DNA from: a phage | Direction: 5' to 3' (one strand) | Sequence record: OZ346187.1 | Length of the DNA: 64,000 nt | Shown: piece after piece, positions 29,309 to 50,754 of the stretch | How positions within the stretch are numbered: the stretch's first letter is position 1 | Layout of the letters: the number at the start of each line of letters is the position of its first letter | Notes under the pieces: model-generated | Seen by the model: the letters and a program-made list of their open reading frames with translations, nothing else | Told to the model about the DNA's origin: nothing | Database searches by the model: none | Made by a program: the position numbers and the translations under genes

Positions 29309-29593
29309 CTACCAGGTTACTGTCAAGTAGGCAACCGTATTATTTTTCTCTGGGGAGATGCCAACAACATCTACCTGCAGACCTCCTGCCCTTAAATCTC
29401 CAACAATGTGAGGGAAGTAATCTGAGAGATGCGAGGGTAGATTTATCGAAAATCCGCACCCCAGAAAGCCTGCTAACGCTTTATTTTGTATCTCCCCCAC
29501 AATCGCATCATAAATGGAGTTAAGCTCGTCAGGGAGCGTTACAGGACGTTTTAGCGCTAACTGGTGTAATTTGTCCTTAGCACTCATTTTCAT
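29309..29593 (-). CDS. hypothetical protein
   Basis: ORF-track 29309-29623; ATG at 29593 overlaps the stop of the upstream methyltransferase gene. Confidence 0.45.
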   Translation of the reverse strand: MKMSAKDKLHQLALKRPVTLPDELNSIYDAIVGEIQNKALAGFLGCGFSINLPSHLSDYFPHIVGDLRAGGLQVDVVGISPEKNNTVAYLTVTW

Positions 29594-30123
29594 TTCAGGT
29601 CTACCTCTGGAGGTGCCAACCACATAAACGGCGGCAAGTCTAAACGGTTTTTCTTATCCCACACAAAATATGCATATGCTTGCCCGTCAGTTCTGCCGTT
29701 TGATTGAAATGATGGACGCTTAGATATTGTGATCACAGTAGTAGGTGCATTATCAAGCCACCATTCAAATCTGGCTTTGCTTTCCAGAAAATTAAGACGC
29801 AAAAGCATAATAACTACGTCAGCATCTTTCAACGCCTTGTCTACAAACTCACGAGCCAGGCTGTATGGTGGGTTGGTGATAATACAGTCAACATGGTTGT
29901 ATTCTGTATTCAGATAGTCAACACCTTCTTGTATTTCTCCCCATGCAGATCCTAACGGCATACGGGAGTAGAACACACCTGAGGCACTATTCCTGCAAGG
30001 CTCTAAGTAGGTCCAGTCTTCTGGGAACGGAATAAGGTCATACAGCCCTTCTGCACACCACTCCGGTGTCACATACTCATCGTAGGCGTTACGTTGTTCA
30101 TCAGGTTTTCGAGCACAAGTCAT
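29590..30123 (-). CDS. DNA N6-adenine (or N4-cytosine) methyltransferase, small phage Dam-like
   Basis: Catalytic motif IITNPPYS (NPPY) with conserved acidic residue upstream. Confidence 0.65.
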   Translation of the reverse strand: MTCARKPDEQRNAYDEYVTPEWCAEGLYDLIPFPEDWTYLEPCRNSASGVFYSRMPLGSAWGEIQEGVDYLNTEYNHVDCIITNPPYSLAREFVDKALKDADVVIMLLRLNFLESKARFEWWLDNAPTTVITISKRPSFQSNGRTDGQAYAYFVWDKKNRLDLPPFMWLAPPEVDLK

Positions 30124-30140
30124 GCAAATCTCCAGATCAT

Positions 30141-30164
30141 AAAAGCCCTCCGAAGAGGGCTTTA
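30141..30164 (-). terminator. rho-independent terminator GCCCTC-CGAA-GAGGGC flanked by A/T runs
   Basis: Perfect 6-bp GC stem + tetraloop between ClpP-like gene and methyltransferase. Confidence 0.6.
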
Positions 30165-30174
30165 GAATTAATGT

Positions 30175-31224
30175 TTAAGCTTCTTCGACAATTCCTGCAC
30201 CCAGGATTTTTTCATTGAGCTCTTTTGCTGTTTTAATAATATTGTCCACCAGACGCTTGCGAGTCTTATCTTTTACCTTAACCTCTTCACCGCCGTTTAG
30301 GGTTGTCTTCAATTGGGACAAAATGTCTTGAAGTTCAACGACAGAGAATCGCTGCAGATCTTCTGAGGTAATCTCACCTAAGGCAATCTTAACGGTCTCA
30401 CCACTTTCCATCTGCAGGTTCAGGAACACAGTGTGAACATCACCTTTCGAACCACCAGCTTTTGCAGATTCAACAGCATGAACTAACTCATCTAAAGAGG
30501 TACACTGGTGAATCTCCGGGAGACCTGCTTCACCTAACACACCTTCTTCATCACCTTTTGCCAGAAGCTTTTTCGGTTTTTGTCCGTTCTGGATGCGTTG
30601 TATGTTACCTTCATCCAGAATGATAGCTCCAGTTCGAGCTGCCAGCTCCTCTCCGTCCAACCACACTTCACCACCAGCTGTGATGGATGCGATCTCATCT
30701 TCTGTCAGCACCCAACCGTAGTATTTTTCGATCAGGCGTTCGAAACGCTTTTTCCAGTAGCTGACCTGAGTATTCATGTTCACACCGTTACCATAAGTGC
30801 CACCTTGATAGTAGTGGAACATAAATTCTGTGTCCGGAGCCACAGTACGTTCTTTGCAACCCAGCCATAAGATTGTTCCCGCAGAGCAGCACATCCCTTC
30901 CGCATGTGCAACAACGCTTGCCTGAGACTCGCGGAATGCCTGCAGATAAGCCATCGCAATGTGCACGCAACCACCAGGGCTGTTAATGATCACTCGAATG
31001 CTTTCTTCAGGCTGAGCCATACGGATCGTCTGCAGGCGAGACATATGATCCTGCAGGTCTTCCAAATCGTCGATATAAAGAACGTGGTCAACAACAGGTG
31101 TTGGGTAGCTGTATGTCTCCATAATACCACCCGGCATACCGAACATTTTATTACTCATAGGTTCGAAACCGTTCTGTTTTTCTTTCATGCCGTGTACCAT
31201 GGTGCTGCGAGGTGTTAAATTCAT
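30175..31224 (-). CDS. ClpP-family serine peptidase-like protein with C-terminal extension
   Basis: INSPGG and GMCCSAG (active-site Ser context) resemble the ClpP/S14 fold. Confidence 0.6.
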   Translation of the reverse strand: MNLTPRSTMVHGMKEKQNGFEPMSNKMFGMPGGIMETYSYPTPVVDHVLYIDDLEDLQDHMSRLQTIRMAQPEESIRVIINSPGGCVHIAMAYLQAFRESQASVVAHAEGMCCSAGTILWLGCKERTVAPDTEFMFHYYQGGTYGNGVNMNTQVSYWKKRFERLIEKYYGWVLTEDEIASITAGGEVWLDGEELAARTGAIILDEGNIQRIQNGQKPKKLLAKGDEEGVLGEAGLPEIHQCTSLDELVHAVESAKAGGSKGDVHTVFLNLQMESGETVKIALGEITSEDLQRFSVVELQDILSQLKTTLNGGEEVKVKDKTRKRLVDNIIKTAKELNEKILGAGIVEEA

Positions 31225-31284
31225 GAGAAATCCTTAATATTGGAAGTTGAAAGCTATTTATTTAAACCTGATTCACATTTACCT

Positions 31285-31596
31285 TTATTTAGCAATCACT
31301 AGTGAATACTTACGATTGTCAGAAGCATCACAGCTCAATGATTGCCAGTCTACCACATACCACGTATCATTGTCAACAATTACTTTATCGCCTGTTCTGT
31401 AGCAGGTACTGCTTTCAATAATCCGAGACTCGATAAAGAATCTGTGTCGGCGCTCACGTAGCAACGCTAAGTTGATTATATTACCACCGCTGTCCTTGAT
31501 CCACACATTCTTGGATCCTTTATTTGCCAAAATTGTCTCGCCGTTGTAGACAAACAGGCAGTATATTTTATTCAGTTTCTCTTGTATTGTAGCCAT
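31285..31596 (-). CDS. hypothetical protein
   Basis: ORF-track ORF. Confidence 0.45.
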   Translation of the reverse strand: MATIQEKLNKIYCLFVYNGETILANKGSKNVWIKDSGGNIINLALLRERRHRFFIESRIIESSTCYRTGDKVIVDNDTWYVVDWQSLSCDASDNRKYSLVIAK

Positions 31597-31624
31597 ACTG
31601 TCCTTCTCTCTGTTTTGTCCGATA

Positions 31625-31653
31625 ATAATATCTAAAGCTTACCTATTTGTCAA
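31625..31653 (-). promoter_or_regulatory. sigma70-like promoter on minus strand (TTGACA-17-TATTAT)
   Basis: Reverse complement of 31625-31653 gives TTGACA ... TATTAT upstream of ORF 31596. Confidence 0.5.
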
Positions 31654-31697
31654 CAACTGTTTTAGATATTTAAGGGTGGAATAACCACCCTTCTGTA

Positions 31698-32486
31698 TTA
31701 CTCGGAAACAGGGGTCCAAATATGGTTTGCACGATCCTCAATAAGATTGAGTGCGATCTGACGACCCAACCCGGAACGAACGACATCGTCTGGACTATCA
31801 AAGCTGATCATTCCAACCTCAGGATCTGGATGACGAGTAAAGAAATCCGTCACCCATGCAAGGCCAGATTTACCAGGGATGTCACGTTGGCTATTATCAC
31901 CCATAATTACAAGGGTGGCCTGATCAGAGATCCTTGTGATAATTGACAACATTTCTTCAGGGTTAGTTTGCTGTGCCTCGTCAATCAGGACAAAGCATCG
32001 CTCATCGAAACTACGACCACGAATGCTTTCAACTTCACAAATCTCGATACGACTGTTCTGACCGTCTCCCAGCATTGCGGCAAAAGCACCTTTGCCAACA
32101 CGACGACAAATCGTGTCCATCATGCTTCGAAGATAGGGCCACAGTTTCTGCATTGCATTTCCGGGTTTAAATCCTGAAGTCTTTCCTGTCTGGACGTAAG
32201 GACGTGCAACAATGATCTTATCAATCTCGTTCTTACGCAGAAGATCACCTGCATATGCAGATGCCATAAATGTCTTACCGGATCCAAACACACCGTTTAC
32301 AATAATAATCTTACGTGACCCCAGATAATCAAGATACTTTTGCTGCTTCTTATTCATTGGTCGGAGAGCTGGAGCGGTGTGCTCTCTTTCGTCAGCAAAT
32401 TTCTCAGCAGCCTTACGCAGGCGATCAGATTTGCGAGCCTCTCTAGCTTCATCACGCATGCGTTTTGTTTCTTTAGCTCGACCCAT
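31698..32486 (-). CDS. phoH: PhoH-like ATPase
   Basis: Walker A GVFGSGKTF and PhoH-like downstream motifs. Confidence 0.8.
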   Translation of the reverse strand: MGRAKETKRMRDEAREARKSDRLRKAAEKFADEREHTAPALRPMNKKQQKYLDYLGSRKIIIVNGVFGSGKTFMASAYAGDLLRKNEIDKIIVARPYVQTGKTSGFKPGNAMQKLWPYLRSMMDTICRRVGKGAFAAMLGDGQNSRIEICEVESIRGRSFDERCFVLIDEAQQTNPEEMLSIITRISDQATLVIMGDNSQRDIPGKSGLAWVTDFFTRHPDPEVGMISFDSPDDVVRSGLGRQIALNLIEDRANHIWTPVSE

Positions 32487-32524
32487 GTTGGGACTCCTTT
32501 CAGATTGAGATGTGCCAAGTACTT

Positions 32525-32875
32525 TTACTGCAACAGTTTTTCAATAGCCGCTTCCATGCTGCTTGCAACAGCCTGAACTCGGATATTCATCTCTTCTTGG
32601 TGGATCAGCTCCTTAAGCTCTTTAATGGTAAATTCTTTAGAGAAACCTTCCACCATAATCTTGTGCAAGGCTTCTTGCGTGTCTACTTGCAAGAACTTTT
32701 CCAGTTTGTTGGCAGAGGCTTCTAAATCAGCCCGAATACGAGGGTCATCTGTGCGATTCAGCATTAGGCGTAAGCCATCAAGATTAGTAGAAATAGCATC
32801 TGCATGTTGAGTAACTAACCGTGGCAAAATGAGGTCTACAAACTTATTAGCCAAATCGATACGTTCTTGTGTCAC
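32525..32875 (-). CDS. hypothetical protein
   Basis: ORF-track ORF. Confidence 0.45.
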   Translation of the reverse strand: MTQERIDLANKFVDLILPRLVTQHADAISTNLDGLRLMLNRTDDPRIRADLEASANKLEKFLQVDTQEALHKIMVEGFSKEFTIKELKELIHQEEMNIRVQAVASSMEAAIEKLLQ

Positions 32876-33015
32876 TGTTGCACCCCCTCTTCATCTTCAT
32901 GATGTTTCTTTTCACGCTTGTGTTTTTTCTTAAGCTCAAGCGCAATCTCTTTTCTTGTACGCCTTCTTCAAGGCTTTTTTAGCCATTTGGCACCTCCTCT
33001 GCTTTCATTACGCTA

Positions 33016-33045
33016 ATTATAACCAACTTAACAAAACTTTGTCAA
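33016..33045 (-). promoter_or_regulatory. sigma70-like promoter on minus strand (TTGACA-18-TATAAT)
   Basis: Reverse complement gives consensus -35 and -10 upstream of ORF 32875. Confidence 0.55.
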
Positions 33046-33048
33046 CAA

Positions 33049-33522
33049 TTAGTCAACCTGAACCCAACCACCTGCTGCCTTTTTAAACATTCTTTGGTTA
33101 TCACTACCTCTGAAGGGTTTTTTGGTTGGGTTATCTTTTTCGTACTTACCATCCATAATGTAATCGACACTATCTTTAATGTAATCGGGAACCTCTTCAA
33201 ACAAATACCCTGTGTACACCCAGATAGTTTTTGTGTTGCCGAAGTGTTCACGGATAGCGCTAATGATCGAGTACATACCCTCAATATTGTAAGGCGCTAA
33301 AGGTTCGCCACCGCATAATGTAACGCCAGTAATGTGTTTCGGCTCTATAGAGTGAAGTATACTCTCAATAGTGTCATTTGTTAACGGTTCCCCTTTAGCT
33401 GGTGACCAAACACTTTTGTTTTGGCAACCGACGCAGTGATGTGGGCAACCAGAACAGAACACCGTTGTCCTAATGCCTGGGCCGTCAACCATGCTACACT
33501 CTATAATATTAACAACATTCAT
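33049..33522 (-). CDS. nrdG: anaerobic ribonucleotide reductase activating protein (radical SAM)
   Basis: CSGCPHHCVGC radical-SAM cysteine cluster; adjacent to nrdD. Confidence 0.8.
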   Translation of the reverse strand: MNVVNIIECSMVDGPGIRTTVFCSGCPHHCVGCQNKSVWSPAKGEPLTNDTIESILHSIEPKHITGVTLCGGEPLAPYNIEGMYSIISAIREHFGNTKTIWVYTGYLFEEVPDYIKDSVDYIMDGKYEKDNPTKKPFRGSDNQRMFKKAAGGWVQVD

Positions 33523-33755
33523 TCCTTATCCTCTTTTAGGTAAGGATATTCAGGCCCACAATAAGCTCTATCCAAGAAAACAGCTTCTTCCCCTCTGGAA
33601 TCAGTAGATCTATAATACCCATCACCATGGTAACTAACGAACCAGTGGCACCCATCATCGCTTTCTACTGTTGTGGCTCTGTCCGAATGAAAGATAATTT
33701 CGTAATCCTTACCGAATGTAAACCATCTGTTAGCTTTTACACAGACACCTATCAT
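33519..33755 (-). CDS. hypothetical protein
   Basis: ORF-track ORF. Confidence 0.45.
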   Translation of the reverse strand: MIGVCVKANRWFTFGKDYEIIFHSDRATTVESDDGCHWFVSYHGDGYYRSTDSRGEEAVFLDRAYCGPEYPYLKEDKE

Positions 33756-34086: not shown

Positions 34087-35349
34087 TCAGCAACTACAAC
34101 TTCCATAGTGCTTAACTCGCTCGATAACTTCCGCTTGCTTACCTTTATTGTAAGGACGGGAGTTAGGACTGGAAAGGTATCCAGACACACGTCGAATTAC
34201 ACTGATCGTTCCCTCTTCATGGTTTCCACACTCTGGGCATACAAAGCCTTTAGCTGTTGCACTGAACTCACCAGAGAAACCACACTTGAGACATTTATCC
34301 ACAGGTTGGTTAATACCAAAATACATAATATGTTTATACCCGAAGTCAACAAGAGCCTCTAAAGCATCCAGGTTGTTTTTCAGGTTAGGTGTCTCTACGT
34401 ATCCAATGTTGCCACCAGAGGAGATCATAGCAAAACCTTCCTCATACTCCCACTTATCAAAAGGAGAGCTATTTATCCACACTGGCTGATGGAAACTGTT
34501 GGTGAGATATTCATGCTCGTGCTTTAACACTTCTGGATATTCACGATCCAGACAGGTTGCAGCTTTATAGCATAGACTCTCAGAAGGAGTGCCGTACAAG
34601 CTAAATGCTAGTCTACTTTCCTTCTTGTATCGCTCACAAGCATCTCTCATGTGCTGAAGGATTCCAAGAGCTAAAGCCTTGTCACCTTCTCTGCCCAAAA
34701 TCTGACAGGTTTCATACACACCAATATACCCAATACTGATGGAAGCGTACCCGTCATAGAAGAGTTTATCAATACTTTCTTCGGGATCCAGGCGAGCAAG
34801 AGCGCCTTCACACCACATGATGGGGTTCTGCCCTGCCTTTGTTCCTTTTAGACGGTTAACCCTTACAAGGTGAGCCTCGTATGCAAGATCCAAGTATTCG
34901 TCAAGAACTGCAAAGAAATCAACACATTCCGTCTTAGCTTTTGCCGCAATCATTGGCAGGTTAAGGCTAACAACACCCAAGTTGAATCTGCCGAGGTATT
35001 TCTCCTCACCTGTTTCCAAGTCATTGTATTTGCTAAGAAAACTCCGGCAACCCATACTCGTTACTTTGCCATCTGTCGAGCCTGTCACTTTACGATTTAG
35101 TGGAACAGAAACAAAGTCAGGATAAATCCGCTCTGCAGAGCATTCCAGAGCTAATCGTTTCAAATCATAGTTAGGATCTCCGGGGTTCATGTTGACACCC
35201 TCTTCTAGGAAGAACAGCACTTTAGGGAACACAGGTGTGATACGTTCTTCACCAAGACCCATTTTGTGGACTTTCAAGTAATTTTTGGTAATCATTCTAC
35301 CAAAGACCGAGGTATCCAGTCCTAAACTTAATGTGATGAATGGAGTCTG
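34087..35349 (-). CDS. nrdD: anaerobic ribonucleotide reductase NrdD, exon 2
   Basis: Glycyl-radical motif RRVSGYL; strong similarity to the T4 NrdD C-terminal half; exon begins QTPFITLSLG upstream of ORF-track start 35295. Confidence 0.85.
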   Translation of the reverse strand, partial: QTPFITLSLGLDTSVFGRMITKNYLKVHKMGLGEERITPVFPKVLFFLEEGVNMNPGDPNYDLKRLALECSAERIYPDFVSVPLNRKVTGSTDGKVTSMGCRSFLSKYNDLETGEEKYLGRFNLGVVSLNLPMIAAKAKTECVDFFAVLDEYLDLAYEAHLVRVNRLKGTKAGQNPIMWCEGALARLDPEESIDKLFYDGYASISIGYIGVYETCQILGREGDKALALGILQHMRDACERYKKESRLAFSLYGTPSESLCYKAATCLDREYPEVLKHEHEYLTNSFHQPVWINSSPFDKWEYEEGFAMISSGGNIGYVETPNLKNNLDALEALVDFGYKHIMYFGINQPVDKCLKCGFSGEFSATAKGFVCPECGNHEEGTISVIRRVSGYLSSPNSRPYNKGKQAEVIERVKHYGSCSC

Positions 35350-36146
35350 CTGTCTCCTCCCTGTGTTTCCACAGGGCCAGACTATCTATTACTCTACTTC
35401 AATAAGATAATAACCCTTTATTGTGAGATGCTTACCTTCGGCATTTCCTTCGATAGCCCTGTGAACGTTACCTACGTTCAAATTTAAGGCTTTTGCACAG
35501 GCGTAGAGTGAAGGATATTCACCCACCAAGATTTTCCCTTTGTATGCCTGCACTTTCCTATAGCACTTACCTGGACAAAGTCCTGTTCGGAAAGCATGTC
35601 TCTTATTATCTTCCGGCAAAACCCACTCTAGGTTAGACGGATGATCATTCAATGTATTGCCATCTTTATGATTCACTTCCCAGTTTTCAGGGTCTTCTGG
35701 GACATCTGGCAAACAATACAAGGCAACAACCCTTGAGGTTTGGATTCGAATCTTTTTACCTTTGTGGTTGAAAGAGTACATATAACGGCGTTTAACATGC
35801 TTATTACCTTTTCCATAACCTCCCCACAATATTGGGTGCAGCATTCCACGTTTTCCGTATACGTTTCCAACTTCATCAATCACATAGTTTGATTCTTCAC
35901 CATTAAGAATGATCTTTTTCATAGAGCCTCTCCATTTCGAAGTTAGTATTTCAACTAACCCCTACACTACTTGGTTCAGAAATGTTTGTCAAGCATCTCT
36001 GCCTTTCGTTAGTCGTTACAACCGTTCCAACTCCTGTAAGAACTAGTCACGGGATTGGCATAGCTTTCGCCTTAGCGTTCCCCGTTAGCCGGATTTACCG
36101 ACCCCTCTTATGAGGTTAGGAGAGTTTTACAACGGCCAGTTTGTTA
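35350..36146 (-). mobile_element. group I intron in nrdD carrying an HNH homing-endonuclease ORF
   Basis: 5' exon ends GGU, intron starts UAA; ACGGGGAAC and CAAUCCCGUG elements as in the T4 td/nrdD introns; S-like UAGAUAGUCUGG at the ORF stop; intron ends in G before CAG. Confidence 0.8.
35389..35922 (-). CDS. HNH homing endonuclease (intron-encoded)
   Basis: EVNHKDGNTLNDHPSNLEWV...NKRHA HNH motif; lies entirely inside the nrdD intron. Confidence 0.75.
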   Translation of the reverse strand: MKKIILNGEESNYVIDEVGNVYGKRGMLHPILWGGYGKGNKHVKRRYMYSFNHKGKKIRIQTSRVVALYCLPDVPEDPENWEVNHKDGNTLNDHPSNLEWVLPEDNKRHAFRTGLCPGKCYRKVQAYKGKILVGEYPSLYACAKALNLNVGNVHRAIEGNAEGKHLTIKGYYLIEVE

Positions 36147-37007
36147 ACCGTTGACAGAAGTTAACGTATTGATTTGATAGAGCAAAGTCTGCATGCTGTC
36201 AAATACGTCTTTATCTGTCATTTGCATTGCAACAGTCTCAGCATCTGGCAACCAATGTTCCTGGCAAAATTTAAGGTTCTTCTCATAAGTCGCCTCAGCA
36301 TACTGTGCCAAATAATGGTCAATATGGCTCATAGTCTGACCCCCATATTGAGCACTAGCTACTGCACTAGAGATTTGGCTAAGGATTGTTGTTGCAACCC
36401 CTATTGACTTCGGCTTACTGACATGGGCGTTACCAATGTTGAATCCGTTTTCCAACATATCTGGATAATTTACCAAACAACAGTTTGTTAACGGACTGAT
36501 CAAGTAGTCAAGATCATGCACATGGATGAAGCCTTTATTGTGCTCTTCTGAGACACGGTCTGGCAGGATCTGTGTTGATGCAAGGTGTTTGCTAAGGATG
36601 CCTGCAAGCAGGTCACGATGAGTGTGTACATGATTGGTAGGCTTATTTGCGTTTTCTTTTGTAAATTCATCACAAGTTCGATCCAAGAAGCCACTAATAT
36701 CTGCAAGCAGTTTTCCACCTGCCTCTCTGTTATTATCTCTTGTCTGTCTATACTGGATGTATTCTCTGGCTGCACATTTTAAACCCATATCCATAAGAGC
36801 ATCTTCAACAAGGATATGGATATTTTTTACAGAGATCGTGCACTGGTCGGTTGGTAGATTGTTAGCAACAACTTCATTAACCGCACAAGCGATCCGGTAA
36901 GCTTCTTCTTCAGTATGTCCAGACTCAAGTAAGGCGGACTCTGCCGCCTTGATCACCTTAATTCCGTTATAGACCTCTTCTCTACCGTCCCGTTTTACAA
37001 CTTTCAC
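36147..37007 (-). CDS. nrdD: anaerobic ribonucleotide reductase NrdD, exon 1
   Basis: GFIHVHDLDY, TNCCLVNYPDMLENGF, KSIGVATTILSQ match T4 NrdD; ends ...TLTSVNG at the splice site. Confidence 0.85.
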
Positions 37008-37282: not shown

Positions 37283-37285
37283 ATA

Positions 37286-38374: not shown

Positions 38375-38391
38375 TATTCTACCTCTAAAAT

Positions 38392-38405: not shown

Positions 38406-38412
38406 TTTAAAA

Positions 38413-41524: not shown

Positions 41525-41525
41525 A

Positions 41526-42709: not shown

Positions 42710-42710
42710 T

Positions 42711-43912: not shown

Positions 43913-44115
43913 TAAAAACCTCCGTGGTATTCTTCAACTGCATCAATAATACTTTTACACTTATCTACCAGCTCGTTAGCCACTACAGCATCGTCTTCCC
44001 AAACAGCCTCCTCAATCTGATCAAGCAATGATCGCATCTTACTCATCATTTCTGGGATAAAGTTTTCTGAAAAGCTGTCTGGAATTGTTAACTCTAGTGT
44101 CATTTCGGTCTCCAA
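43912..44115 (-). CDS. hypothetical acidic protein
   Basis: ORF-track ORF. Confidence 0.4.
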   Translation of the reverse strand: METEMTLELTIPDSFSENFIPEMMSKMRSLLDQIEEAVWEDDAVVANELVDKCKSIIDAVEEYHGGF

Positions 44116-44130
44116 TCATACTATGCGTTA

Positions 44131-44589
44131 TTAGAAGTTTGTTTTTACACGTCCCTTCTCATCAACCTCGTTGTTAGCTAAAAGCGTTACAAAGTCTGTG
44201 AAACGAACATGAAGAACCCTTTTCTTATCAAGGTATCCTAAAGCCACCCCTGAGAAATTTAGCATCAAAGGGGCTAAAGAAGCTCTGGCACTGAAATGCT
44301 GTTGTTCTACCCTTCCAACACCCTTAGTGTAGGATGGGTTAAGATTGTAAGTTCTGAATCCCAGTTTTGTTGGAGCTTTAGAATTAAAAACGACTTTATA
44401 GCGTTTCTTACTCAACTTATGCTCCAGGATAAGCATTCCCTTATCACCTTTGATAAGTTGAAAATCTGTAAAGTGCTCTTTTAAGACGAAAGGTAGTGCC
44501 AGTCCCATCGCCTGTCCTCTTTGTACCGCTGTCTCACCAAAAGCTTTTGCATCAGTAAGTTCTTTGGTCAAGTCTATGCTTTTGATCAT
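44131..44589 (-). CDS. hypothetical protein
   Basis: ORF-track ORF. Confidence 0.45.
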   Translation of the reverse strand: MIKSIDLTKELTDAKAFGETAVQRGQAMGLALPFVLKEHFTDFQLIKGDKGMLILEHKLSKKRYKVVFNSKAPTKLGFRTYNLNPSYTKGVGRVEQQHFSARASLAPLMLNFSGVALGYLDKKRVLHVRFTDFVTLLANNEVDEKGRVKTNF

Positions 44590-45400
44590 ACCTGGTCTCC
44601 AAAATGTATTGTAGTTCTTTCTTACCTATACTCTTCATTCCAGCAGTCTTACCTGCTTCTTCTTGAAAAGAAGAATAGCATTCAGCAAACACTCTGTCAA
44701 CACCGTTAACTAAAGATTTTATGAAATATGTTGATTCTTCAGATTTTGGGTCATCATCCCCCAATACTTTTCCAGCATTATACCCAACACGTCTTACACA
44801 GAAGTCGTAGTCATCTGGTGTGCTAAAAGAAAATAACTTATTCTCTCCAATCTCTACAGGATCCCTATTGCACGCCTTTTTCTCCCAAATTTGGAAAACA
44901 CATGGCACGTCATAAGGTTTGCCATTAAGTAAAAACGAATTCTTAGGGCACCTTTCGCTGTAGACAAGGTGCATCGACATGTCCAGTTTGTTTGCAAAAA
45001 ATATTTTTTCAAATGTCCGTGGCAAGATGAAGGCTATAGCCCCTCCAAGCTCTAGCAATGATGCACAATGGTTAAAGAATTTGCAAGCTAAGGATGAATT
45101 CTTGCCAAATGGTGGGTTACCTATGAAGACATCTGCCTTGGGATGCACCTCCAAGAAGTTTGCCTGAATGCACGGTGTTGGTCCTTCAAATTCAGGATCT
45201 GGTACTAAATCGTACGACAGTATCTCTGAAAATAGTTTTGAAAAAGAACCCCTTCCAGCAGAAGGCTCAACGTATGCACAATTCCCATACTTATCTTTTA
45301 CTTTACCAACAAGATATTCTGCATACTCAGGGTTTGTGTAGTATTTGTCGTTGGACTCTTTCTTGCTCAAAGTGCCTCCAAAAGGAAAAGGGAGGCGCAA
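44552..45400 (-). CDS. DNA N6-adenine methyltransferase (start codon uncertain)
   Basis: AdoMet motif VEPSAGRGSF and catalytic motif IGNPPFG (NPPF). Confidence 0.65.
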   Translation of the reverse strand: MRLPFPFGGTLSKKESNDKYYTNPEYAEYLVGKVKDKYGNCAYVEPSAGRGSFSKLFSEILSYDLVPDPEFEGPTPCIQANFLEVHPKADVFIGNPPFGKNSSLACKFFNHCASLLELGGAIAFILPRTFEKIFFANKLDMSMHLVYSERCPKNSFLLNGKPYDVPCVFQIWEKKACNRDPVEIGENKLFSFSTPDDYDFCVRRVGYNAGKVLGDDDPKSEESTYFIKSLVNGVDRVFAECYSSFQEEAGKTAGMKSIGKKELQYILETRYDQKHRLDQRTY

Positions 45401-45407
45401 GCCTCCC
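45381..45407 (-). terminator. rho-independent terminator GGGAGGC-GCAA-GCCTCCC + T-run (minus strand)
   Basis: Perfect 7-bp stem and T-rich tail downstream of the exonuclease gene. Confidence 0.55.
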
Positions 45408-45415
45408 TATAATTG

Positions 45416-46399
45416 TTAGATTATCTGAATCAGGGTATTTTTCATTTCTTCTCTGGTGCGGATGTTGTTACGGTCACGAACAACAGATCCACAACCTTCG
45501 CAGCGGTATGTTTTAAATGCACTCAGTTGAGTATACGCCAAAGCTTCTTCCTCGTGAAGGTGTTCTCCACCACAGCGTGGGCAACGAACTTTTGGCTCCT
45601 CATCCTGGTAGTACAATGACATGTTGGGGTGCTGCTTAGCAAACGGGCGAGCCAGCAAATACAGGCCTTCCAGAGATAGGATATCGCCAACATTGTACTC
45701 CCGCATCTGTTTAAACGCCTCAAGATCACCGTGAACACACTTGATCCACATTTCAAATGTGTGGTCAATCAGTTTCTGTCGGGCAAGTTGGAAGTATTTG
45801 CATGCATACTCCAAAGTGTTTGCATTCAAACGGAATGCCTTCTTGATCATTTTAAGGGTGTCAACCTCTTTGTAGGGGCTTGTTGGAGGCAATCCGTGAA
45901 ATGCAAATCGTTGGTTGGCCCACCCACAGTCAAAACCTGAATTGTGGGCTACTGCGACATCACATTTATCCAGATAATACCACAAATCCTGAATCAATTC
46001 GAGATCATTGTGAATATCCTCATCCCACATTTTGTAATCAGGAAGAGCGCAGTCAACCACACTAGGACTGTCTAACCACTTACCTGCGAAAGTTAGCATG
46101 TAGGGCATAATTTCAATACCGCAGGTTTGAATGTTGGTCTTATAGTGCCCAAAGAACCAGCCGTTTGTTGGAGATGTCTCTGTATCATACACCCAAACTT
46201 TAGCACCTTTGTGCTCTTCAAGGAAGCGCTCCGTTGCTTCTCCTACAATCTCTGACATATTCTCTTGTGCACGTTTAAGCTGTAGTCGGATCCAGCTCTC
46301 ACGTGACTCACGGCCTAAAAATTCACGAGCAATTTGTCTATTAGTGTATCCCTGTTGCTTTAGTGTTAAAATTTGCTCAAGAGTTAACTTTGTCATCAT
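45416..46399 (-). CDS. DEDD-family 3'-5' exonuclease (DnaQ-like) with N-terminal HTH-like region
   Basis: Exo I VWVYDTETS, Exo II VAHNSGFD, Exo III YNVGDI. Confidence 0.6.
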   Translation of the reverse strand: MMTKLTLEQILTLKQQGYTNRQIAREFLGRESRESWIRLQLKRAQENMSEIVGEATERFLEEHKGAKVWVYDTETSPTNGWFFGHYKTNIQTCGIEIMPYMLTFAGKWLDSPSVVDCALPDYKMWDEDIHNDLELIQDLWYYLDKCDVAVAHNSGFDCGWANQRFAFHGLPPTSPYKEVDTLKMIKKAFRLNANTLEYACKYFQLARQKLIDHTFEMWIKCVHGDLEAFKQMREYNVGDILSLEGLYLLARPFAKQHPNMSLYYQDEEPKVRCPRCGGEHLHEEEALAYTQLSAFKTYRCEGCGSVVRDRNNIRTREEMKNTLIQII

Positions 46400-46411
46400 C
46401 GTTAAGATTCC

Positions 46412-46633
46412 TTAGTAAAACTGAAGAATGTCTTTTAAAGCGAAGTCACGATATTCGCCCTTGTCTACATCGAAGGCACGCATCAACCACTGCTCTTCTT
46501 TATGATACTCTGTAGAGCCAAACCATAAATTAGGCTCAGTAACGCAGCGATCTGCAACAACACCTTTCCAGTTACGGTATTTCATCCTGATCAGGACTGA
46601 GTCGCAAGGATTGAATACCTTTTTCATCCCCAT
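46412..46633 (-). CDS. hypothetical protein
   Basis: ORF-track ORF. Confidence 0.4.
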   Translation of the reverse strand: MGMKKVFNPCDSVLIRMKYRNWKGVVADRCVTEPNLWFGSTEYHKEEQWLMRAFDVDKGEYRDFALKDILQFY

Positions 46634-47177
46634 AGAAATCTCTCTCCTCAGTTTTCTTTATAAACTCCTGCATGTAGGACTCAATAGCCTCATGCTTGGT
46701 GCACTCTGGATTAATGACAAGATTGAGATCTGATTCTGCTCGTGCAATGATCGTAGCTTTAGAGCATCTCCTCAAGAACTTTGTCATATCATCTCTGTAG
46801 TTTTTGTGGAGCGGGAAGTCGCTGTAGTCTTTCTCCAAATAGTCAGCCATCCGGCGCAACGCCTCTGATAAACTGCAATCTGTATACTCGTTACAGTATT
46901 TCATCCAGTATTTAAGCACATACCCCTCAAAGGTATTAGTGCATTGTGACAAAACACCCCTGCAACGACCAGTCAGATGGTCATGATCCAAACAAGGCTT
47001 ACGAAGTGGCTCGCACAAGATCGGATCAAGACCATCCTGCTCCTCTGACAATTCTTTTCGAAAGTTGGCTATGTCCTTAGAATCTTTTAGCCACCCGCTA
47101 TGAACGGGGGCTTTGACAGCTTTCTTTCTTATTTTACGCTTTGCGATAACCCCTCCAGATGCGCCCTGCCTATCCAA
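46572..47177 (-). CDS. endonuclease VII-family (HNH-like) nuclease
   Basis: CLDHDHLTGRCRGVL matches the T4 endonuclease VII core (DHDH-TG-RG). Confidence 0.6.
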   Translation of the reverse strand: MDRQGASGGVIAKRKIRKKAVKAPVHSGWLKDSKDIANFRKELSEEQDGLDPILCEPLRKPCLDHDHLTGRCRGVLSQCTNTFEGYVLKYWMKYCNEYTDCSLSEALRRMADYLEKDYSDFPLHKNYRDDMTKFLRRCSKATIIARAESDLNLVINPECTKHEAIESYMQEFIKKTEERDFYGDEKGIQSLRLSPDQDEIP

Positions 47178-47758
47178 TAAGCATCGGCGAGATCGGCCTT
47201 ACCTTGTACCAAATTGATCCCATCTAGGAACCCAGGTTCAGATACTTCGCAGGCCTTAACCATCAACTTTTTATCCATCGTAACAGGTTTCTTCACAGTA
47301 TGCTCTTTACCTGTCTTTTTGTCAAGCTTTTTCTTCTCCTCAAAAGCAAGTTCCTCAGGAAGATGACTACGAGCAAACTTTTTGGCAGTTGTTGGTGTCA
47401 CGGTGTGGACCTTAAACAGGCCGTCATTTTCACAATCAGCTAAAGCATCCCAAAGCATAACTTCAAGACCGTAAAACAACCCAGCCAGTTCGCGTGTGGC
47501 ATCCCCGCGTGATCCAAAGGAAAGCCCTTCCATAACCACGGTGTCAACGCCGTGCGTGTGGATGTAATATCTGACCTGTTTGCAGATCCAGTCAATACGC
47601 TCAGCAGCTGTTGCAAAAGAAACCGTCCCTGGTTTCTTCTCTTTTGCAGATGAGCTTTGAGTTCGTAACACAACCTTATGAACAGGCTTTCCATCGTCCC
47701 ATACAACGCAAGCTGTGTGTGTCAACGACTGGTCTATGGATAATAGACGCTCTCTCAT
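47129..47758 (-). CDS. RuvC-like Holliday junction resolvase
   Basis: LLSIDQSLTHTACVVWDD and TVVMEGLSFG resemble RuvC catalytic motifs. Confidence 0.55.
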   Translation of the reverse strand: MRERLLSIDQSLTHTACVVWDDGKPVHKVVLRTQSSSAKEKKPGTVSFATAAERIDWICKQVRYYIHTHGVDTVVMEGLSFGSRGDATRELAGLFYGLEVMLWDALADCENDGLFKVHTVTPTTAKKFARSHLPEELAFEEKKKLDKKTGKEHTVKKPVTMDKKLMVKACEVSEPGFLDGINLVQGKADLADAYWIGRAHLEGLSQSVK

Positions 47759-48087
47759 GCTTCCTCGTCCTCCTCTCCTTCATCAGGAGCATAAGCCTTA
47801 TCTTTGAACAAGACGAGAGAGCAAAGCTTAACATCTGTTTCCACACTGGTGAACATGCATAACCGCTCGCCCTCAATCAGCTCACAATCCTCTTTTAAAA
47901 CAGCAGACCATACACGGTCATCTGCGTAATCATCCGTGTACAGGATGTATGAAATGGTGTCATCTTCATACAACCGCCACATACCTGTGGCAACAACGAA
48001 TGTATTTTTTGTTTTAAGTGTCCCTGTTGTGTGATCATCCTCAAAAACAGCTTCCATAATTGCGTTATCTACAGCATTTTTAGTCAT
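47755..48087 (-). CDS. hypothetical acidic protein
   Basis: ORF-track ORF. Confidence 0.45.
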   Translation of the reverse strand: MTKNAVDNAIMEAVFEDDHTTGTLKTKNTFVVATGMWRLYEDDTISYILYTDDYADDRVWSAVLKEDCELIEGERLCMFTSVETDVKLCSLVLFKDKAYAPDEGEEDEEA

Positions 48088-49226
48088 CAGATTGCTCCAA
48101 CATTTCTAAGAACGTTAACAAGTTTTGTCTGGTCATTAAATGTCCGCTTCATATACAAACAGTCAAAAATTATACTCATCCATTGACCTACGGAAATTCT
48201 ACGATCAATACCATTGAAGTCAGTATACTTAACAACACCTTTCGGGAACCACTTCTTGTACTGATCAATAATAGCCACCCACATCTCCTTTGGAGTGCTG
48301 CACTGAGACAGTAGGTAGAATGCTGAGGCATCCCCGAACTTACCCTTACCGATAAGTCCTTGATACGGCTTGATGTTGTCAGCAGAGTCACCACACAGCA
48401 TTTGGTATCCGAAGAACAGCATCCCGTAACCGCCAACCTCTCCATTAGGCTTCATGAAGATGTTCCCCATACCGTTATCGATCAGCATAGGGGTTTCCCT
48501 TACAAAATCTCCCTTATCGTTTCGCATGGGATCGAACACAAGCCCCGGTAGTGTTCTTTGGTCCTTATCAATAGAGATAATAAACTTGTTGAACTTACCT
48601 GTTTTTTGGTAGTGGTTCCAACCTTCAAATTGCTGGATAGCTAACCAGTCGTCAGCCTCGATACCGTTGATCACTTGAGCATTATACTGCTTTTGGAGAT
48701 ACTGTCTTGCATCTCCAAGCAGCAGTGGTCTAAGAGTATTGTTACGGTTGGCTTTATATCTTTCCGGCATGGGAAGATCTAGTCTGAAATTACCTGTGCC
48801 TCCAAGTACCCCCACGCACCGATCTTCCGGAATACCGAGATAATTAAGGACTGCATTAGCTTTACACTTAATTGTGTGCAAGCAGTTCTCTACAGGATCA
48901 GGGGTTTGGATATCCAAGACATCGAAATCTTCTCGTGTCCACGGAATAAACTCCTTGCCAGCCTTTTTACATGCAGCTTCACGGTTGGTATTCTCAGCTT
49001 TTAACCAACCACCAACGGTGTTCTTCTGCCGCCCCCAGAACTCTGTTCGTGTTTTAAACATCTTCTTACGTCCGGAGGCTTTGTGTGTTACCTCAATTGT
49101 CCTTTTTTCACAACTTGCTGCAGCTTGATATGCAACCTGATCGAAGTCATAATAAACTATAGCGTCAGGTTCAAGAAGATCAGCTAGACAATCTATGGAC
49201 TCAATAAGTGGATATTCTCTACTCAA
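48087..49226 (-). CDS. 5'-3' exonuclease / flap endonuclease
   Basis: NGIEADDWLA matches the FEN/5'-nuclease GxEADD motif. Confidence 0.65.
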   Translation of the reverse strand: MSREYPLIESIDCLADLLEPDAIVYYDFDQVAYQAAASCEKRTIEVTHKASGRKKMFKTRTEFWGRQKNTVGGWLKAENTNREAACKKAGKEFIPWTREDFDVLDIQTPDPVENCLHTIKCKANAVLNYLGIPEDRCVGVLGGTGNFRLDLPMPERYKANRNNTLRPLLLGDARQYLQKQYNAQVINGIEADDWLAIQQFEGWNHYQKTGKFNKFIISIDKDQRTLPGLVFDPMRNDKGDFVRETPMLIDNGMGNIFMKPNGEVGGYGMLFFGYQMLCGDSADNIKPYQGLIGKGKFGDASAFYLLSQCSTPKEMWVAIIDQYKKWFPKGVVKYTDFNGIDRRISVGQWMSIIFDCLYMKRTFNDQTKLVNVLRNVGAI

Positions 49227-49527
49227 AGACCCTCCTGTTAGTTATTCTGCAAGATGGTTGGATGCTGTAATGAAATGCATCATCACTCTCTGCAATAAGT
49301 GACTCAACATCCCAATACTTTTCAAAAAGGAACGGATTAGACCCCCAGTGGTGGGTTATTTTCATCAATGAGTCTGGTAGCAGATAGCCACAGATCTTAA
49401 TTACATCACCAGGTTGAATTGTGTTTTCATAGAGGTTGCTTTCCTTCTTCAGAATAATACCTTTATGATTCTCGTTTGCATACAACTGGACAATATCTTT
49501 ATCTTCAACAATAAAAATTTTAAGCAT
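49219..49527 (-). CDS. hypothetical protein
   Basis: ORF-track ORF. Confidence 0.45.
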   Translation of the reverse strand: MLKIFIVEDKDIVQLYANENHKGIILKKESNLYENTIQPGDVIKICGYLLPDSLMKITHHWGSNPFLFEKYWDVESLIAESDDAFHYSIQPSCRITNRRVFE

Positions 49528-49560
49528 GTCTAGTTCTCCTAGTTTATAAATATCTGACTG

Positions 49561-49590
49561 ATAATATCAGATTAATAACACTTTTGTCAA
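49561..49590 (-). promoter_or_regulatory. sigma70-like promoter on minus strand (TTGACA-18-TATTAT) with palindrome CTGATATTATCAG over the -10
   Basis: Reverse complement gives consensus -35; -10 sits inside a 13-bp palindrome. Confidence 0.5.
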
Positions 49591-49883
49591 GACTTTTTAG
49601 TCTTTCTTGGAGAGCTTTTTGTTGATCTTTTCCTTTTGTGGTAGATTCCAAGTGCAGCGTTTTCTTGGGCGCACGTTTTAACAGTTCTCAGAGAAGAACT
49701 TTCAGCTTTAGGCAGGTTTAACTCCCACCAACCGAGCCAGTAAAGTTCTGATTCCGACAGCTGCTCAGATTCAGCCTTCCGATACAATGATTGCATACCT
49801 CTAATGATGTCGTCCAGAGGTGTATCGAATACAAAAGCTGTCTTATCAAATTTCTCTTTTACAGGTTTCTTAGCCATGCTCAC
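49587..49883 (-). CDS. hypothetical basic protein
   Basis: ORF-track ORF; Lys/Arg-rich C-terminus. Confidence 0.45.
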   Translation of the reverse strand: MSMAKKPVKEKFDKTAFVFDTPLDDIIRGMQSLYRKAESEQLSESELYWLGWWELNLPKAESSSLRTVKTCAQENAALGIYHKRKRSTKSSPRKTKKS

Positions 49884-50754
49884 CTCTCACACAATCATCC
49901 ACTGACTTCATAAACTCTTGCACCCAAAGTGCCCCTATTTGAGGAACTATGGCGTTACCGAAGCCTTTGTGGCGAGACAATCCCATTGGGGTGGATAGCC
50001 CATCAACCAACAAGGGAATGCCGGGTTCAGGAAGTTTACGCCATTTTCCGTCTCGGCATAGATACTGTCTTGTATGCTCCCACACCCGTAATACATCCTC
50101 ACCTGCTCCCACAGATTCCCAGGACTTAATGACTTCCTGCCAGTTGCTAAGCGTTGTTGCTTGCGCCTTTCCATCGCTTCCTGAGATCTGCACCCTACCT
50201 GAGTTACCGTAGGGGTTAACCACGTTGCTAACTGCCCCGAAGTAAAGTCGTTCGCGGCGGTGCGGGGCGTTGAGGATTGCAGCATTAAGTATGGAAGCCC
50301 CGAAGCTGTAACCAGCGTTTTCCATTTCATTCTGCATATCGTCGAGCCATCCGGATTCAATCGCTTTTGCAACCTGCTCTCCAAACATGAACTCAGGTTT
50401 AAGCTGTTTAACGAGCCGGAGGTATGTTGGTGCAAGATGTCTTGGGTCAAATTTTCCACGTTGCTTACCTGCTTGAGAGAAAGGTTGGCAGCACGGAGAT
50501 CCTGTGCATACCGACCAAGTTTCTGGAATGCCAGCAAGTTTCAAGGCCAAAGGCCATCCACCTATACCAGCGAAGAAGTGCCACTGTGTGAAACCTCTAA
50601 GATCTTCTACAGTAACCTCTGTAATAGAACGATCATCCACCTCGCCTTGAGGAAGTAGTCCTAAAGATATTAGATTCTTCAACCAAGCAACTGCATCTTT
50701 ATCATTGTCATTGTAGTATACCACACTTAATTCTCCAAATACTGATGTATCCAA
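49870..50754 (-). CDS. dcm: DNA C5-cytosine methyltransferase
   Basis: Motif I HFFAGIGG, motif IV GSPCCQPFSQAG, ENV-like FGEQV, RRER, motif X GNAIVPQ. Confidence 0.8.
   Translation of the reverse strand: MDTSVFGELSVVYYNDNDKDAVAWLKNLISLGLLPQGEVDDRSITEVTVEDLRGFTQWHFFAGIGGWPLALKLAGIPETWSVCTGSPCCQPFSQAGKQRGKFDPRHLAPTYLRLVKQLKPEFMFGEQVAKAIESGWLDDMQNEMENAGYSFGASILNAAILNAPHRRERLYFGAVSNVVNPYGNSGRVQISGSDGKAQATTLSNWQEVIKSWESVGAGEDVLRVWEHTRQYLCRDGKWRKLPEPGIPLLVDGLSTPMGLSRHKGFGNAIVPQIGALWVQEFMKSVDDCVRGEHG

Follow-up and report, generated by a model that had tools for sequence, protein, structure and literature searches.

The window analysed here, a stretch of 64,000 nucleotides from sequence record OZ346187.1, belongs to a Vequintavirus (an rV5-like E. 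coli myovirus) and carries four methyltransferase genes, referred to as A, B, C and D. These probably act as orphan enzymes that mask the phage genome site-specifically at short motifs, and they do so at a cost. Encoded among replication and nucleotide-metabolism genes, they would mark newly made phage DNA as follows: the Dam-like A would place m6A on GATC, which host Dam does not do on phage DNA; B, or a Mod-like gene outside the window, would place m6A on GTAC; and D, a core gene, together with C, which lies on a rare 870-bp cassette, would make 5-methylcytosine. Since such marks protect only against nucleases reading the same motifs, the result would be site-specific masking and not general armour. 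The cost would lie in the toxicity of methyltransferase activity to the host and in its being sensed by retron defence systems.

Methyltransferase genes of the window

The window showed 97-99% identity to pangalan, CarlMeissner and about 120 other Vequintavirus records, in which the same four genes are named in the annotations. Four orphan methyltransferases are largely known biology, already annotated in close relatives. The earlier note had claimed four methyltransferase ORFs, and this was confirmed, each being intact, located on the strand given below and carrying the motif ascribed to it; the range 29590-50754 that it gave for all four was incorrect, as D (1174-1938) falls outside. A regular-expression search covering every ORF of 80 aa or more in the window gave no further (D/N/S)PP(Y/F/W/H) or PPC(Q/T) candidate, the sole other match being a spurious GPCS. 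In relatives, a further methyltransferase gene, the fifth, terminates 88 bp upstream of window position 1, and a single genome can contain up to five such genes. The product of this fifth gene is a confident PF01555 adenine/N4-cytosine DNA methyltransferase similar to the Mod subunits of type III systems.

A, B and D are core genes, situated within replication and nucleotide-metabolism modules. A is at least 99% identical in 109 records, and B and D are conserved at 90% identity or more in 121 and 117 records, respectively. By-eye comparison with Bas51 (WalterGehring, MZ501111) revealed differences of 1, 2 and 1 residues in proteins A, B and D, respectively; Bas51 does not have C.

GATC methylation

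Gene A (29590..30123, minus strand), which adjoins a ClpP-like protease gene, encodes a putative Dam-like GATC N6-adenine DNA methyltransferase of 177 aa. The only strong family match was to PHROG 799 (phrog_799, E=8e-67), which comprises 5783 representatives at E<=1e-3, and the scores lay below the curated cut-offs of PF05869 Dam (19.2 vs. 28.1 bits), PF13651 (20.1 vs. 26.4) and TIGR01712 (16.1 vs. 97). Its motifs follow the gamma order, with EYVTP (aa 16-20, an FxTP-like motif X) preceding EPCRNSASG (aa 41-49, motif I) and NPPY (aa 84-87, motif IV; 29863..29874, minus strand), immediately before which stands T83. Motif I is degenerate with respect to the EPSAGRG of B.

Protein A and bas51_0176 of Bas51 are identical at 176 of 177 residues, the sole difference being V174A. 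The reported retron-escape mutations are D69G, D79G and T83P (PMC12548924). Among the Bas51 methyltransferases only bas51_0176 has D69, D79 and T83; the three substitutions fit this protein alone and, therefore, A is the orthologue of the mutated enzyme. Nanopore sequencing of wild-type Bas51 detected methylated adenines at GATC (1405), GTAC (509) and other positions (576) (PMC12548924, S4 table), while the corresponding values for the T83P mutant were 35, 511 and 349 (PMC12548924). We counted 703 GATC and 258 GTAC sites in the Bas51 genome (1406 and 516 adenines), that is, roughly 961 sites per 140.7 kb. Since 1405 of the 1406 GATC adenines and 509 of the 516 GTAC adenines are methylated, both motifs are about 100% methylated in Bas51. 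Host Dam leaves phage GATC nearly unmethylated (35/1406 adenines in T83P), so the phage supplies its own enzyme. The GATC enzyme is dispensable, has toxic effects on E. coli and activates the retrons Asa1 and Squ1 (PMC12548924), so that it is both a shield and a liability. The assignment of A to the N6-adenine type on the basis of NPPY is borne out by its orthologue, whose GATC methylation is abolished by T83P. By this orthology, A would place m6A on essentially every GATC of the window phage, as has been shown in the near-identical Bas51.

In phage P1, Dam serves packaging and GATC sites cluster at pac. Methylation in Vequintavirus could likewise serve mainly the phage's own DNA transactions, namely the marking of replicated DNA, the avoidance of MutHLS at unmethylated GATC, packaging or late-gene control. 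The placement of A, B and D as core genes in replication and nucleotide-metabolism modules, the strict conservation of A in those 109 records and the need for a phage enzyme where host Dam is so ineffective are all in keeping with such a role. However, we consider it quite unlikely as the main one, given that no significant P1 pac-like GATC cluster was found (the best, 5 sites within 150 bp, would be expected 2.5 times by chance) and that Bas51 T83P, with A inactive and GATC methylation lost, plates like the wild type on K-12 without the retron (PMC12548924).

GTAC methylation

Site-specific masking would extend to a second motif, GTAC. Its m6A in Bas51 is unaffected by T83P (509 adenines before and 511 after), so the enzyme is other than A (PMC12548924), and practically all GTAC sites of Bas51 carry m6A made by this second phage enzyme. 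Our preferred candidate is B, the alternative being the fifth, type III Mod-like gene, which lies shortly before the window. Type III Mod enzymes usually read asymmetric sites.

B (44552..45370, minus strand) is predicted to be a 272-aa amino-methyltransferase of gamma order. Its ORF, 44552-45400(-), is open up to TTG 45400. A good ribosome-binding site (GGAGG 7 nt upstream) favours TTG 45370 as the start, in agreement with the annotation of relatives. It matched phrog_5172 (E=4e-129) and, more distantly, phrog_799 (E=2.6e-13). The motifs invariant across 31 sequences are, in gamma order, D18..T22 (consensus DQFYT, motif X), EPSAGxG (motif I) and GNPPFG (motif IV), with NPPF at aa 95-98 (45107..45118, minus strand). 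Like A, B fell short of all curated Pfam and NCBIfam cut-offs, including those of Eco57I PF07669 (15.5 vs. 25.3 bits) and N6_Mtase PF02384, and it had no NCBIfam match. A 152-aa ORF (44131..44589, minus strand; phrog_9938, E=5e-89) shares 38 nt with the 3' end of B, and the metagenomic B homologue P0259 is extended at its N-terminus by a segment weakly matching phrog_9938 (E=0.0054).

B had been described as an N6-adenine-type DNA enzyme. NPPF and the gamma order agree with the type, and the sequence is compatible with DNA as well as RNA as the substrate. It is rather unlikely that B is a METTL5-like RNA m6A methyltransferase acting on rRNA or tRNA, with GTAC methylation coming from the Mod-like enzyme outside the window, although several observations point that way. 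Among solved structures, the profile of the B family best matched Ta1320 (1.8e-4) and METTL5 (0.024), ahead of M.TaqI (0.6); several homologues are named 'predicted RNA methylase' by JGI and one matches RrnaAD; and the Mod-like gene is, as indicated above, a confident DNA methyltransferase. Against it, B has a C-terminal domain of roughly 150 aa beyond the METTL5-like core, its family shows similarity to phrog_799, which comprises phage DNA methyltransferases, and M.Hpy99XII, the known GTAC m6A enzyme of H. pylori, is a gamma-class type IIP enzyme. Moreover, bacterial homologues of B form two-gene modules, with a conserved, co-oriented partner of 200-230 aa immediately downstream in 23 of 80 loci, and one homologue locus adjoins a type I RM system. 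The partner has invariant E16, K20, D42 and K58 and gave no Pfam or PDB match. Homologue and partner resemble a type II restriction-modification pair, in which the partner would be the putative nuclease. None of the 80 bacterial relatives came from a Helicobacter locus. We therefore retain B as the candidate GTAC enzyme.

Predicted cytosine-C5 methyltransferases C and D

C (49870..50724, minus strand; 284 aa) is probably a genuine C5-cytosine DNA methyltransferase, as judged from its conserved catalytic residues and predicted fold. Its ORF, 49870-50754(-), is open up to TTG 50754, with GTG 50724 as the likely start. It matched PF00145 with E=3e-20 and 73.3 bits (cut-off 22), only profile positions 62-163 being aligned. 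Across 121 sequences of the family, C89, Q90, E126, Q127 and V128 are invariant, as are the SAM-loop glycines; motif IV is SPCCQ in C (50485..50499, minus strand) and SPPCQ in the family consensus, with invariant Cys89. Foldseek gave M.HhaI as the best match of the predicted structure (E=2.5e-8, probability 1.00), and the DNA cytosine C5-carboxymethyltransferase 8yf3 was among the top fold matches. The core of the model had pLDDT 80-90, and the target-recognition region was below 50 at aa 179-228 and 241-266. The family is large (4916 cluster representatives) and includes enzymes of K1ind-, Dhillonvirus-, epsilon15- and Klebsiella T1-like phages.

C had been called a canonical Dcm-type C5 enzyme; the C5 methyltransferase part holds, but canonical it is not, since motifs II-III stand before motif I, the order being II-III-I-IV-VI-VIII-TRD-X. 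The N-terminal block (50614..50718, minus strand), with a motif II-like YYNDNDK.A and a motif III-like VDDRSITEV, lies upstream of motif I, FAGIGG (50557..50574, minus strand). In accordance with this order, phmmer splits the alignment to M.HhaI, aa 46-76 matching HhaI 3-33 and aa 76-180 matching HhaI 69-176. When the motif-I block was moved ahead of the N-terminal block, scores rose by 16-22 bits in six of six C-family members and the alignment became contiguous from profile position 6, while the control with reversed or shuffled blocks gained only 1 to 7 bits. In all catalogued natural permuted C5 enzymes, it is motifs IX-X that have moved before motif I (Slaska-Kiss et al., 2018). We tentatively propose, at somewhat less than even chances, that C represents a large phage and prophage C5 family with an undescribed II-III-I-IV...X order, arisen by a local, non-circular rearrangement of the SAM-binding half. 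If the fold threads beta2-beta3 before beta1, this would be a new natural way to build the class I methyltransferase Rossmann sheet and would also be of use in the engineering of split or permuted C5 enzymes.

Comparison with JeffSchatz by blastn showed that C and a new 3' end of the neighbouring HNH gene form an 870-bp accessory cassette (49878..50747, minus strand), which replaces 13 bp and is flanked by window positions 49401-49877 and 50748-51400. Only four phage records hold C at 99% identity or more, the next best match being below 60%; it is present in 4 of about 122 relatives and absent from about 97%. Most relatives cover 88% of the query made up of window positions 44000-51500. The HNH homing-endonuclease gene (50727..51242, minus strand; phrog_5200, E=1e-71), directly upstream of C, also occurs in relatives without C.

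D (1174..1938, plus strand) is a mini C5-cytosine methyltransferase-like gene with a product of 254 aa, located between a 160-aa ORF and a primase/helicase gene. The ORF is open from GTG 1144; TTG 1174, preceded by AGGAG, is the start that has a good ribosome-binding site. It matched phrog_757, 'DNA methyltransferase' (E=5e-87), a family of 3539 cluster representatives, and had no Pfam or NCBIfam match (PF00145, TIGR00675); its family profile reached only E about 0.25 against PDB, to HaeIII and DNMT3B. The motifs are FDGSGG (I), FPPC(T) (IV) and ENP(V) (VI), PPCT with the catalytic Cys99 lying at 1432..1443 (plus strand). Across 121 sequences, F96, P97, P98, C99, E145, N146, P147, S239, P242 and R243 are invariant; L240 and T241 are nearly so, as are R187, beside invariant D188, and F28, G30, S31 and G32 of motif I (at least 90%). 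No GNAV-type motif X was found; the C-terminus consists of a motif IX-like IRSLTPRG and, after it, a helix. The AF2 model had pLDDT 88.5 and pTM 0.88, and its best Foldseek matches were DNMT3A/3B catalytic domains (E=1.7e-7, TM 0.43-0.49), all 50 listed matches being DNMT3A/3B/3C. The previous reading of D as a divergent C5-like ORF is therefore upheld, with motifs I, IV and VI and a predicted C5-methyltransferase fold. We infer that D makes 5-methylcytosine.

We found no 5mC data for any Vequintavirus in the literature. It might be argued that C, D or both are catalytically dead or perform another C5 chemistry, such as carboxymethylation, instead of plain 5-methylcytosine formation. D has neither motif X nor a Pfam match, and its target-recognition region is very short; in C the SAM-binding motifs are rearranged and the target-recognition region is modelled at low confidence, besides the fold match to the carboxymethyltransferase 8yf3. 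Nevertheless, neither the catalytic Cys nor the ENV-type Glu varies among 121 homologues of each family, the SAM-loop glycines of the C family and motif I of the D family are invariant and nearly invariant, respectively, both families are large, and each ORF is intact and preceded by a good ribosome-binding site. Hence, such an explanation appears very unlikely, and 5-methylcytosine is the product that we would expect of both enzymes.

Orphan status and protection against restriction

No cognate restriction endonuclease gene was found adjoining any of the four genes, whose neighbours encode the ClpP-like protease, a DnaQ-like exonuclease, the 152-aa phrog_9938 protein, the HNH homing endonuclease and the primase/helicase; the profile of the bacterial partner of B gave no match in the window. 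With no restriction-enzyme partner, A, B, C and D are, from their gene context, orphan methyltransferases and not complete restriction-modification systems.

The earlier note had proposed extensive genome methylation serving as anti-restriction armour. The former is supported for GATC and GTAC by the published nanopore data on near-identical Bas51; general armour, comparable to T4-type hypermodification, is not. In the BASEL study, the genus was exceptionally susceptible to all three RM types tested, 'lacking any effective protection', the six systems being EcoKI, EcoCFT_I, EcoRI, EcoRV, EcoCFT_II and EcoP1_I (PMC8594841). The collection includes CarlMeissner, which is annotated with C, A and B. 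Two 4-bp motifs methylated almost completely and up to five methyltransferase genes per genome might suggest that the phage is methylated heavily enough for broad protection from host restriction, but methylation at a few short motifs leaves unrelated recognition sites exposed and C is missing from nearly all relatives; taken with the BASEL results, this makes broad protection highly improbable. The sites of the six systems do not overlap GATC or GTAC and, therefore, motif-specific protection, as in the masking proposed here, may still exist.

Comparison with known systems

The best structural match of the D model is the catalytic domain of DNMT3A/DNMT3B, and D shares with it an unusually small target-recognition region. 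D differs in its 254-aa length, its LTPRG helix end, the lack of a GN(A/V) motif X and the presence of PPCT/ENP instead of PCQ/ENV; with only 13-15% identity and TM of 0.43-0.49, the likeness in fold is no evidence for a common specificity or oligomeric state. C shares with the M.HhaI/M.HaeIII-type enzymes (PF00145) motifs I (FAGIGG), IV (PCQ-type), VI (GEQV), VIII (HRRER) and X (GNAIV), a HhaI-like predicted fold and a score above the Pfam cut-off, but differs from them, as does its entire family, in having motifs II-III ahead of motif I.

B can be likened to M.Hpy99XII/M.HpyAXII of H. pylori by class and presumed product: the gamma motif order is the same, and their product, GTm6AC, is the second methylation of Bas51. 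Unlike the type IIP M.Hpy99XII, B is not accompanied by a restriction enzyme in the phage. The small phage Dam enzymes of the T1/HP1 type (PF05869; TIGR01712, phage_N6A_met) have GATC specificity and, like A, are about 170 aa long with NPPY. A matches both models weakly, over the catalytic region, and its own family is the separate phrog_799. The closest known system is bas51_0176 of Bas51, the trigger of retrons Asa1 and Squ1 (Nakamura et al., 2025, PMC12548924), which has the same D69, D79 and T83-NPPY as A and the same gene neighbours, including the ClpP-like protease, so that nothing material differs between the two.

Methyltransferase Genes of the Window

Four ORFs with methyltransferase motifs are present in the window, as the earlier note had described, and all of them (4/4) matched PHROG families. 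The two N6-adenine-type genes, A (29590-30123, minus strand; 177 aa, NPPY) and B (44552-45400, minus strand; NPPF), start at ATG 30123 and TTG 45370 (272 aa), respectively, while the two C5-cytosine-type genes, C (49870-50754, minus strand; PF00145, E = 3e-20) and D (1144/1174-1938, plus strand; FDGSGG, PPCT and ENPV), start at GTG 50724 (284 aa) and TTG 1174 (254 aa). These starts are all supported by ribosome-binding sites and agree with the annotations in relatives. The PHROG families of A, C and D are annotated as DNA methyltransferase; that of B is of unknown function and is itself related to the family of A. A motif scan of every window ORF of at least 80 aa revealed no further methyltransferase candidates.

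The 64-kb window belongs to an rV5-like E. coli myovirus of the genus Vequintavirus, and three BASEL phages with curated annotations, CarlMeissner, JeffSchatz and WalterGehring (Bas51, MZ501111.1), supplied the gene map. Positions 44000-51500 were 99.1% identical to pangalan and CarlMeissner, with about 120 further records matching at 90-99%, and positions 1-4100 showed about 98% identity to related records. It must be said that the four methyltransferase genes are already known: dozens of Vequintavirus genomes in the databases have them annotated, and one of them has been characterised experimentally. No discussion of methylation was found in the rV5 genome paper.

GATC Methylation by A

Escape mutants of Bas51 selected on two retrons were all mutated in "an adenine methyltransferase gene," and the mutations D69G, D79G and T83P were reconstructed (Nakamura et al., PLoS Biol 2025, PMC12548924). 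Among the three annotated N6 methyltransferases of Bas51, bas51_0176 alone combines D69, D79 and T83, and it differs from A in a single residue (V174A). The published nanopore data (PMC12548924, S4 table) give 1405 methylated adenines in GATC, 509 in GTAC and 576 in other contexts for the wild type, vs. 35, 511 and 349, respectively, for T83P. The Bas51 genome holds 703 GATC and 258 GTAC sites, that is, 1406 and 516 adenines, and therefore both motifs are about 99-100% methylated. GATC methylation in Bas51 depends on A and not on the host Dam, and A is, through its near-identical Bas51 orthologue, a characterised Dam-like enzyme. Site densities in the window are the same as in Bas51 (325 GATC and 120 GTAC per 64 kb).

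A is a core gene, found at ≥99% identity in 109 records and at 60-66% in records of Cronobacter, Pectobacterium, Salmonella and Klebsiella phages. Wherever the adjoining gene is annotated, it encodes a ClpP-type protease. Bas51 deficient in A plates normally on K-12, and its A enzyme is toxic in E. coli, with an activity that triggers two retrons (PMC12548924). The ClpP-like protease gene adjoining A in the window (30175-31224, minus strand) is conserved together with A across the subfamily. Since Bas51 is mentioned in a 2026 preprint entitled "Phage protease enzymes activate CBASS antiphage immunity," the protease may, like A, trigger host immunity. A single-sequence PDB search with A returned only noise, and no convincing regulatory GATC cluster was found, the best one being expected by chance.

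Candidates for GTAC Methylation

E. coli K-12 is not known to encode a GTAC methyltransferase, and so the enzyme behind the GTAC m6A must come from the phage. For this fully penetrant mark of the genus, two candidate enzymes can be named. The first is B (bas51_0200 in Bas51), in whose family the motifs D..T (consensus DQFYT), EPSAGxG and GNPPFG are invariant and stand in the gamma order, with a further C-terminal domain of about 150 aa behind them. The GTAC m6A enzyme of H. pylori is a gamma-class type IIP enzyme, which favours B, and by analogy we infer that B is fairly likely to be the GTAC m6A enzyme. The best solved relatives of the B profile were Ta1320 and METTL5, both RNA m6A enzymes, with M.TaqI behind them, so that sequence alone does not fix whether the substrate is DNA or RNA. 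PF26055 is precomputed on many B homologues; a single-sequence PDB search with B gave nothing.

The alternative candidate, either as the GTAC enzyme or as the source of a third m6A motif, is the Mod-like gene bas51_0070, a fifth methyltransferase gene of the relatives (441 aa, DPPF) located at 64456-65781 of MZ501111.1 (14456-15781 of locus L009) and ending 88 bp before window position 1. Its product matches PF01555 (E = 4e-42) and has its closest similarity to type III Mod subunits (6k0w, 1e-28; EcoP15I Mod, 2e-24), which usually read asymmetric sites.

With respect to the favoured candidate, B, its end is overlapped by 38 nt by a 152-aa ORF (44131-44589, minus strand) of phrog_9938, a family of unknown function. 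In addition, the N-terminal extension of P0259, a metagenomic B homologue of 395 aa, weakly matches phrog_9938 (E = 0.0054), and both observations hint at a functional link between B and this ORF.

Among the 4-bp palindromes of the window, only CTAG is more depleted than GTAC (120 GTAC observed vs. 209 expected, ratio 0.58), while GATC is not depleted (observed/expected 0.98). The depletion would be consistent, if weakly, with past selection by GTAC-cutting enzymes. A GTAC cluster at 28103 was marginal (0.025 such clusters expected by chance), and no convincing regulatory GTAC cluster was found.

The Bacterial Partner of B

Of 80 bacterial loci encoding B homologues, 23, from very different phyla, carry the same gene directly downstream of the B homologue and in the same orientation (among loci L014, L021 and L041-L090; for example, the Poseidonibacter ostreae ORF at 3805-4401 of L021). 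This gene encodes a partner of 200-230 aa. Residues E16, K20, D42 and K58 are invariant in the partner family, for which Pfam and PDB searches gave no match. Such an arrangement is what would be expected of a type II restriction-modification pair that is mobile, and one of the loci adjoins a type I system. Gene context and a D-x13-S-x-K signature suggest that the partner is probably an undescribed family of type II restriction endonucleases. A family profile search found no partner homologue in the window, and therefore the phage B is an orphan. A hidden restriction partner was also considered in the 152-aa ORF downstream of B, in which tblastn gave a match (E = 0.53); it was not reproduced by the family profile and was discarded as noise.

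Methylation and Protection Against Restriction

The earlier note had read the four genes as extensive methylation acting as anti-restriction armour. Given the Bas51 counts, methylation is indeed extensive at two adenine motifs of 4 bp, and cytosine methylation is predicted to be likely; we found neither 5mC data nor restriction-digest evidence in the literature on rV5-like phages. A general armour is contradicted by published phenotypes, since in the BASEL study the Vequintavirinae were exceptionally susceptible to restriction-modification systems and seemingly lacked effective protection (PMC8594841). The collection includes CarlMeissner, annotated with C, A and B. The six restriction systems tested there do not overlap GATC or GTAC, which leaves room for motif-specific protection. 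The best-supported reading is that of orphan site-specific methyltransferases giving narrow masking, at a cost. Phage methyltransferases can be liabilities sensed by retrons, besides being shields. The leads that remain are the motif order of C, the assignment of GTAC methylation to an enzyme, the sites recognised by C and by D, and the bacterial partner family of B, which is unannotated.

D, a Predicted Mini C5 Enzyme

Pfam and NCBIfam searches with D gave no match, and its family profile reached only E of about 0.25 at best against HaeIII and DNMT3B. Across 121 homologues, F96, P97, P98, C99, E145, N146, P147, S239, P242 and R243 are invariant, and L240, T241 and R187, the latter beside the invariant D188, are nearly so. 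The AlphaFold model is confident (pLDDT 88.5), and its top Foldseek hits are all DNMT3A/3B catalytic domains (E = 1.7e-7, TM 0.43-0.49). Taken together, the invariant residues, the model and the fold matches support D as a putative mini C5 methyltransferase. The family members listed have 219-262 aa, with a motif IX-like helix at the end and no motif X. Within the genus, D is a core gene, with 117 records at ≥90% identity, and its family is widespread, with relatives in 1504 phage records. A comparison of the D and C families by hhalign gave nothing significant beyond the PPC motif.

Other Features of the Window and Related Records

A stretch of small early genes, about 12 kb long, is present in CarlMeissner and pangalan but missing from the window (6054-18452 of locus L003 vs. 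16134-16494 of the window). At the junction (16134-16903) there is an inverted repeat, near-perfect, whose two arms of about 165 nt (16338-16502 and 16567-16732) are separated by a 64-nt spacer. A real deletion, the physical ends of the genome or a fold-back artefact of the assembly could each account for this arrangement. An insert of about 850 bp (35296-36143), absent from CarlMeissner, divides the anaerobic ribonucleotide reductase gene nrdD into two parts (34087-35295 and 36144-37007) and encodes a 177-aa ORF (35389-35922, minus strand); Bas51 annotates a homing endonuclease there in its own split nrdD. In the tRNA cluster (60743-61555), ARAGORN reported a 99-nt tRNA (61212-61310, plus strand), to which it assigned an anticodon of four bases (atcc) but no amino acid, and the Bas51 counterpart of which has 97 nt and is annotated as tRNA-Lys; it is unusually long or intron-containing. 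Finally, about 20 "Campylobacter phage" records (MG0656xx) match these E. coli Vequintaviruses at 97-98% identity and are probably mislabelled or from contaminated lysates.

C, an Accessory C5 Methyltransferase with an Unusual Motif Order

Most relatives cover just 88% of the 44000-51500 query. C lies in an 870-bp cassette (49878-50747), in place of which JeffSchatz has 13 bp, and it was found at ≥99% identity in only four phage records, the next best being below 60%. C is an accessory gene, carried by CarlMeissner and pangalan and lacking in WalterGehring. The adjacent HNH gene occurs with or without C, and the idea that C is its cargo was reduced to positional linkage.

The earlier note had taken C for a canonical Dcm-type enzyme. 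C is a genuine C5 methyltransferase and its predicted fold matches M.HhaI, but its motifs II-III appear to stand before motif I. The Pfam alignment spans only profile positions 62-163, and phmmer splits the match to HhaI into aa 46-76 (HhaI 3-33, motif I) and aa 76-180 (HhaI 69-176, motifs IV-VIII), skipping HhaI residues 34-68 (motifs II-III). The N-terminus of the C family (YYNEWDK.AAAWLRELI...VDERSITEV), upstream of HFFAGIGGW, closely resembles motifs II-III. When the motif-I block was put ahead of the N-terminal block in silico, the PF00145 score rose from 73.3 to 95.8 bits and the alignment became contiguous over profile positions 6-163; the same rearrangement raised five other family members from 61.7-70.8 to 81.2-89.3 bits. 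Deleting the N-terminal block left the score at 73.3, and controls with the block reversed or shuffled reached only 74.5-80.2 bits; therefore, some 16-21 bits are specific to the sequence of the block. In the structural model, aa 11-86 are predicted to form a beta-alpha-beta-alpha-beta-alpha-beta succession, which is compatible with the rearrangement. This unusual order merits structural confirmation. The natural permuted C5 enzymes in REBASE all move motifs IX-X ahead of motif I (Slaska-Kiss et al., 2018), and the order of C is not among them.
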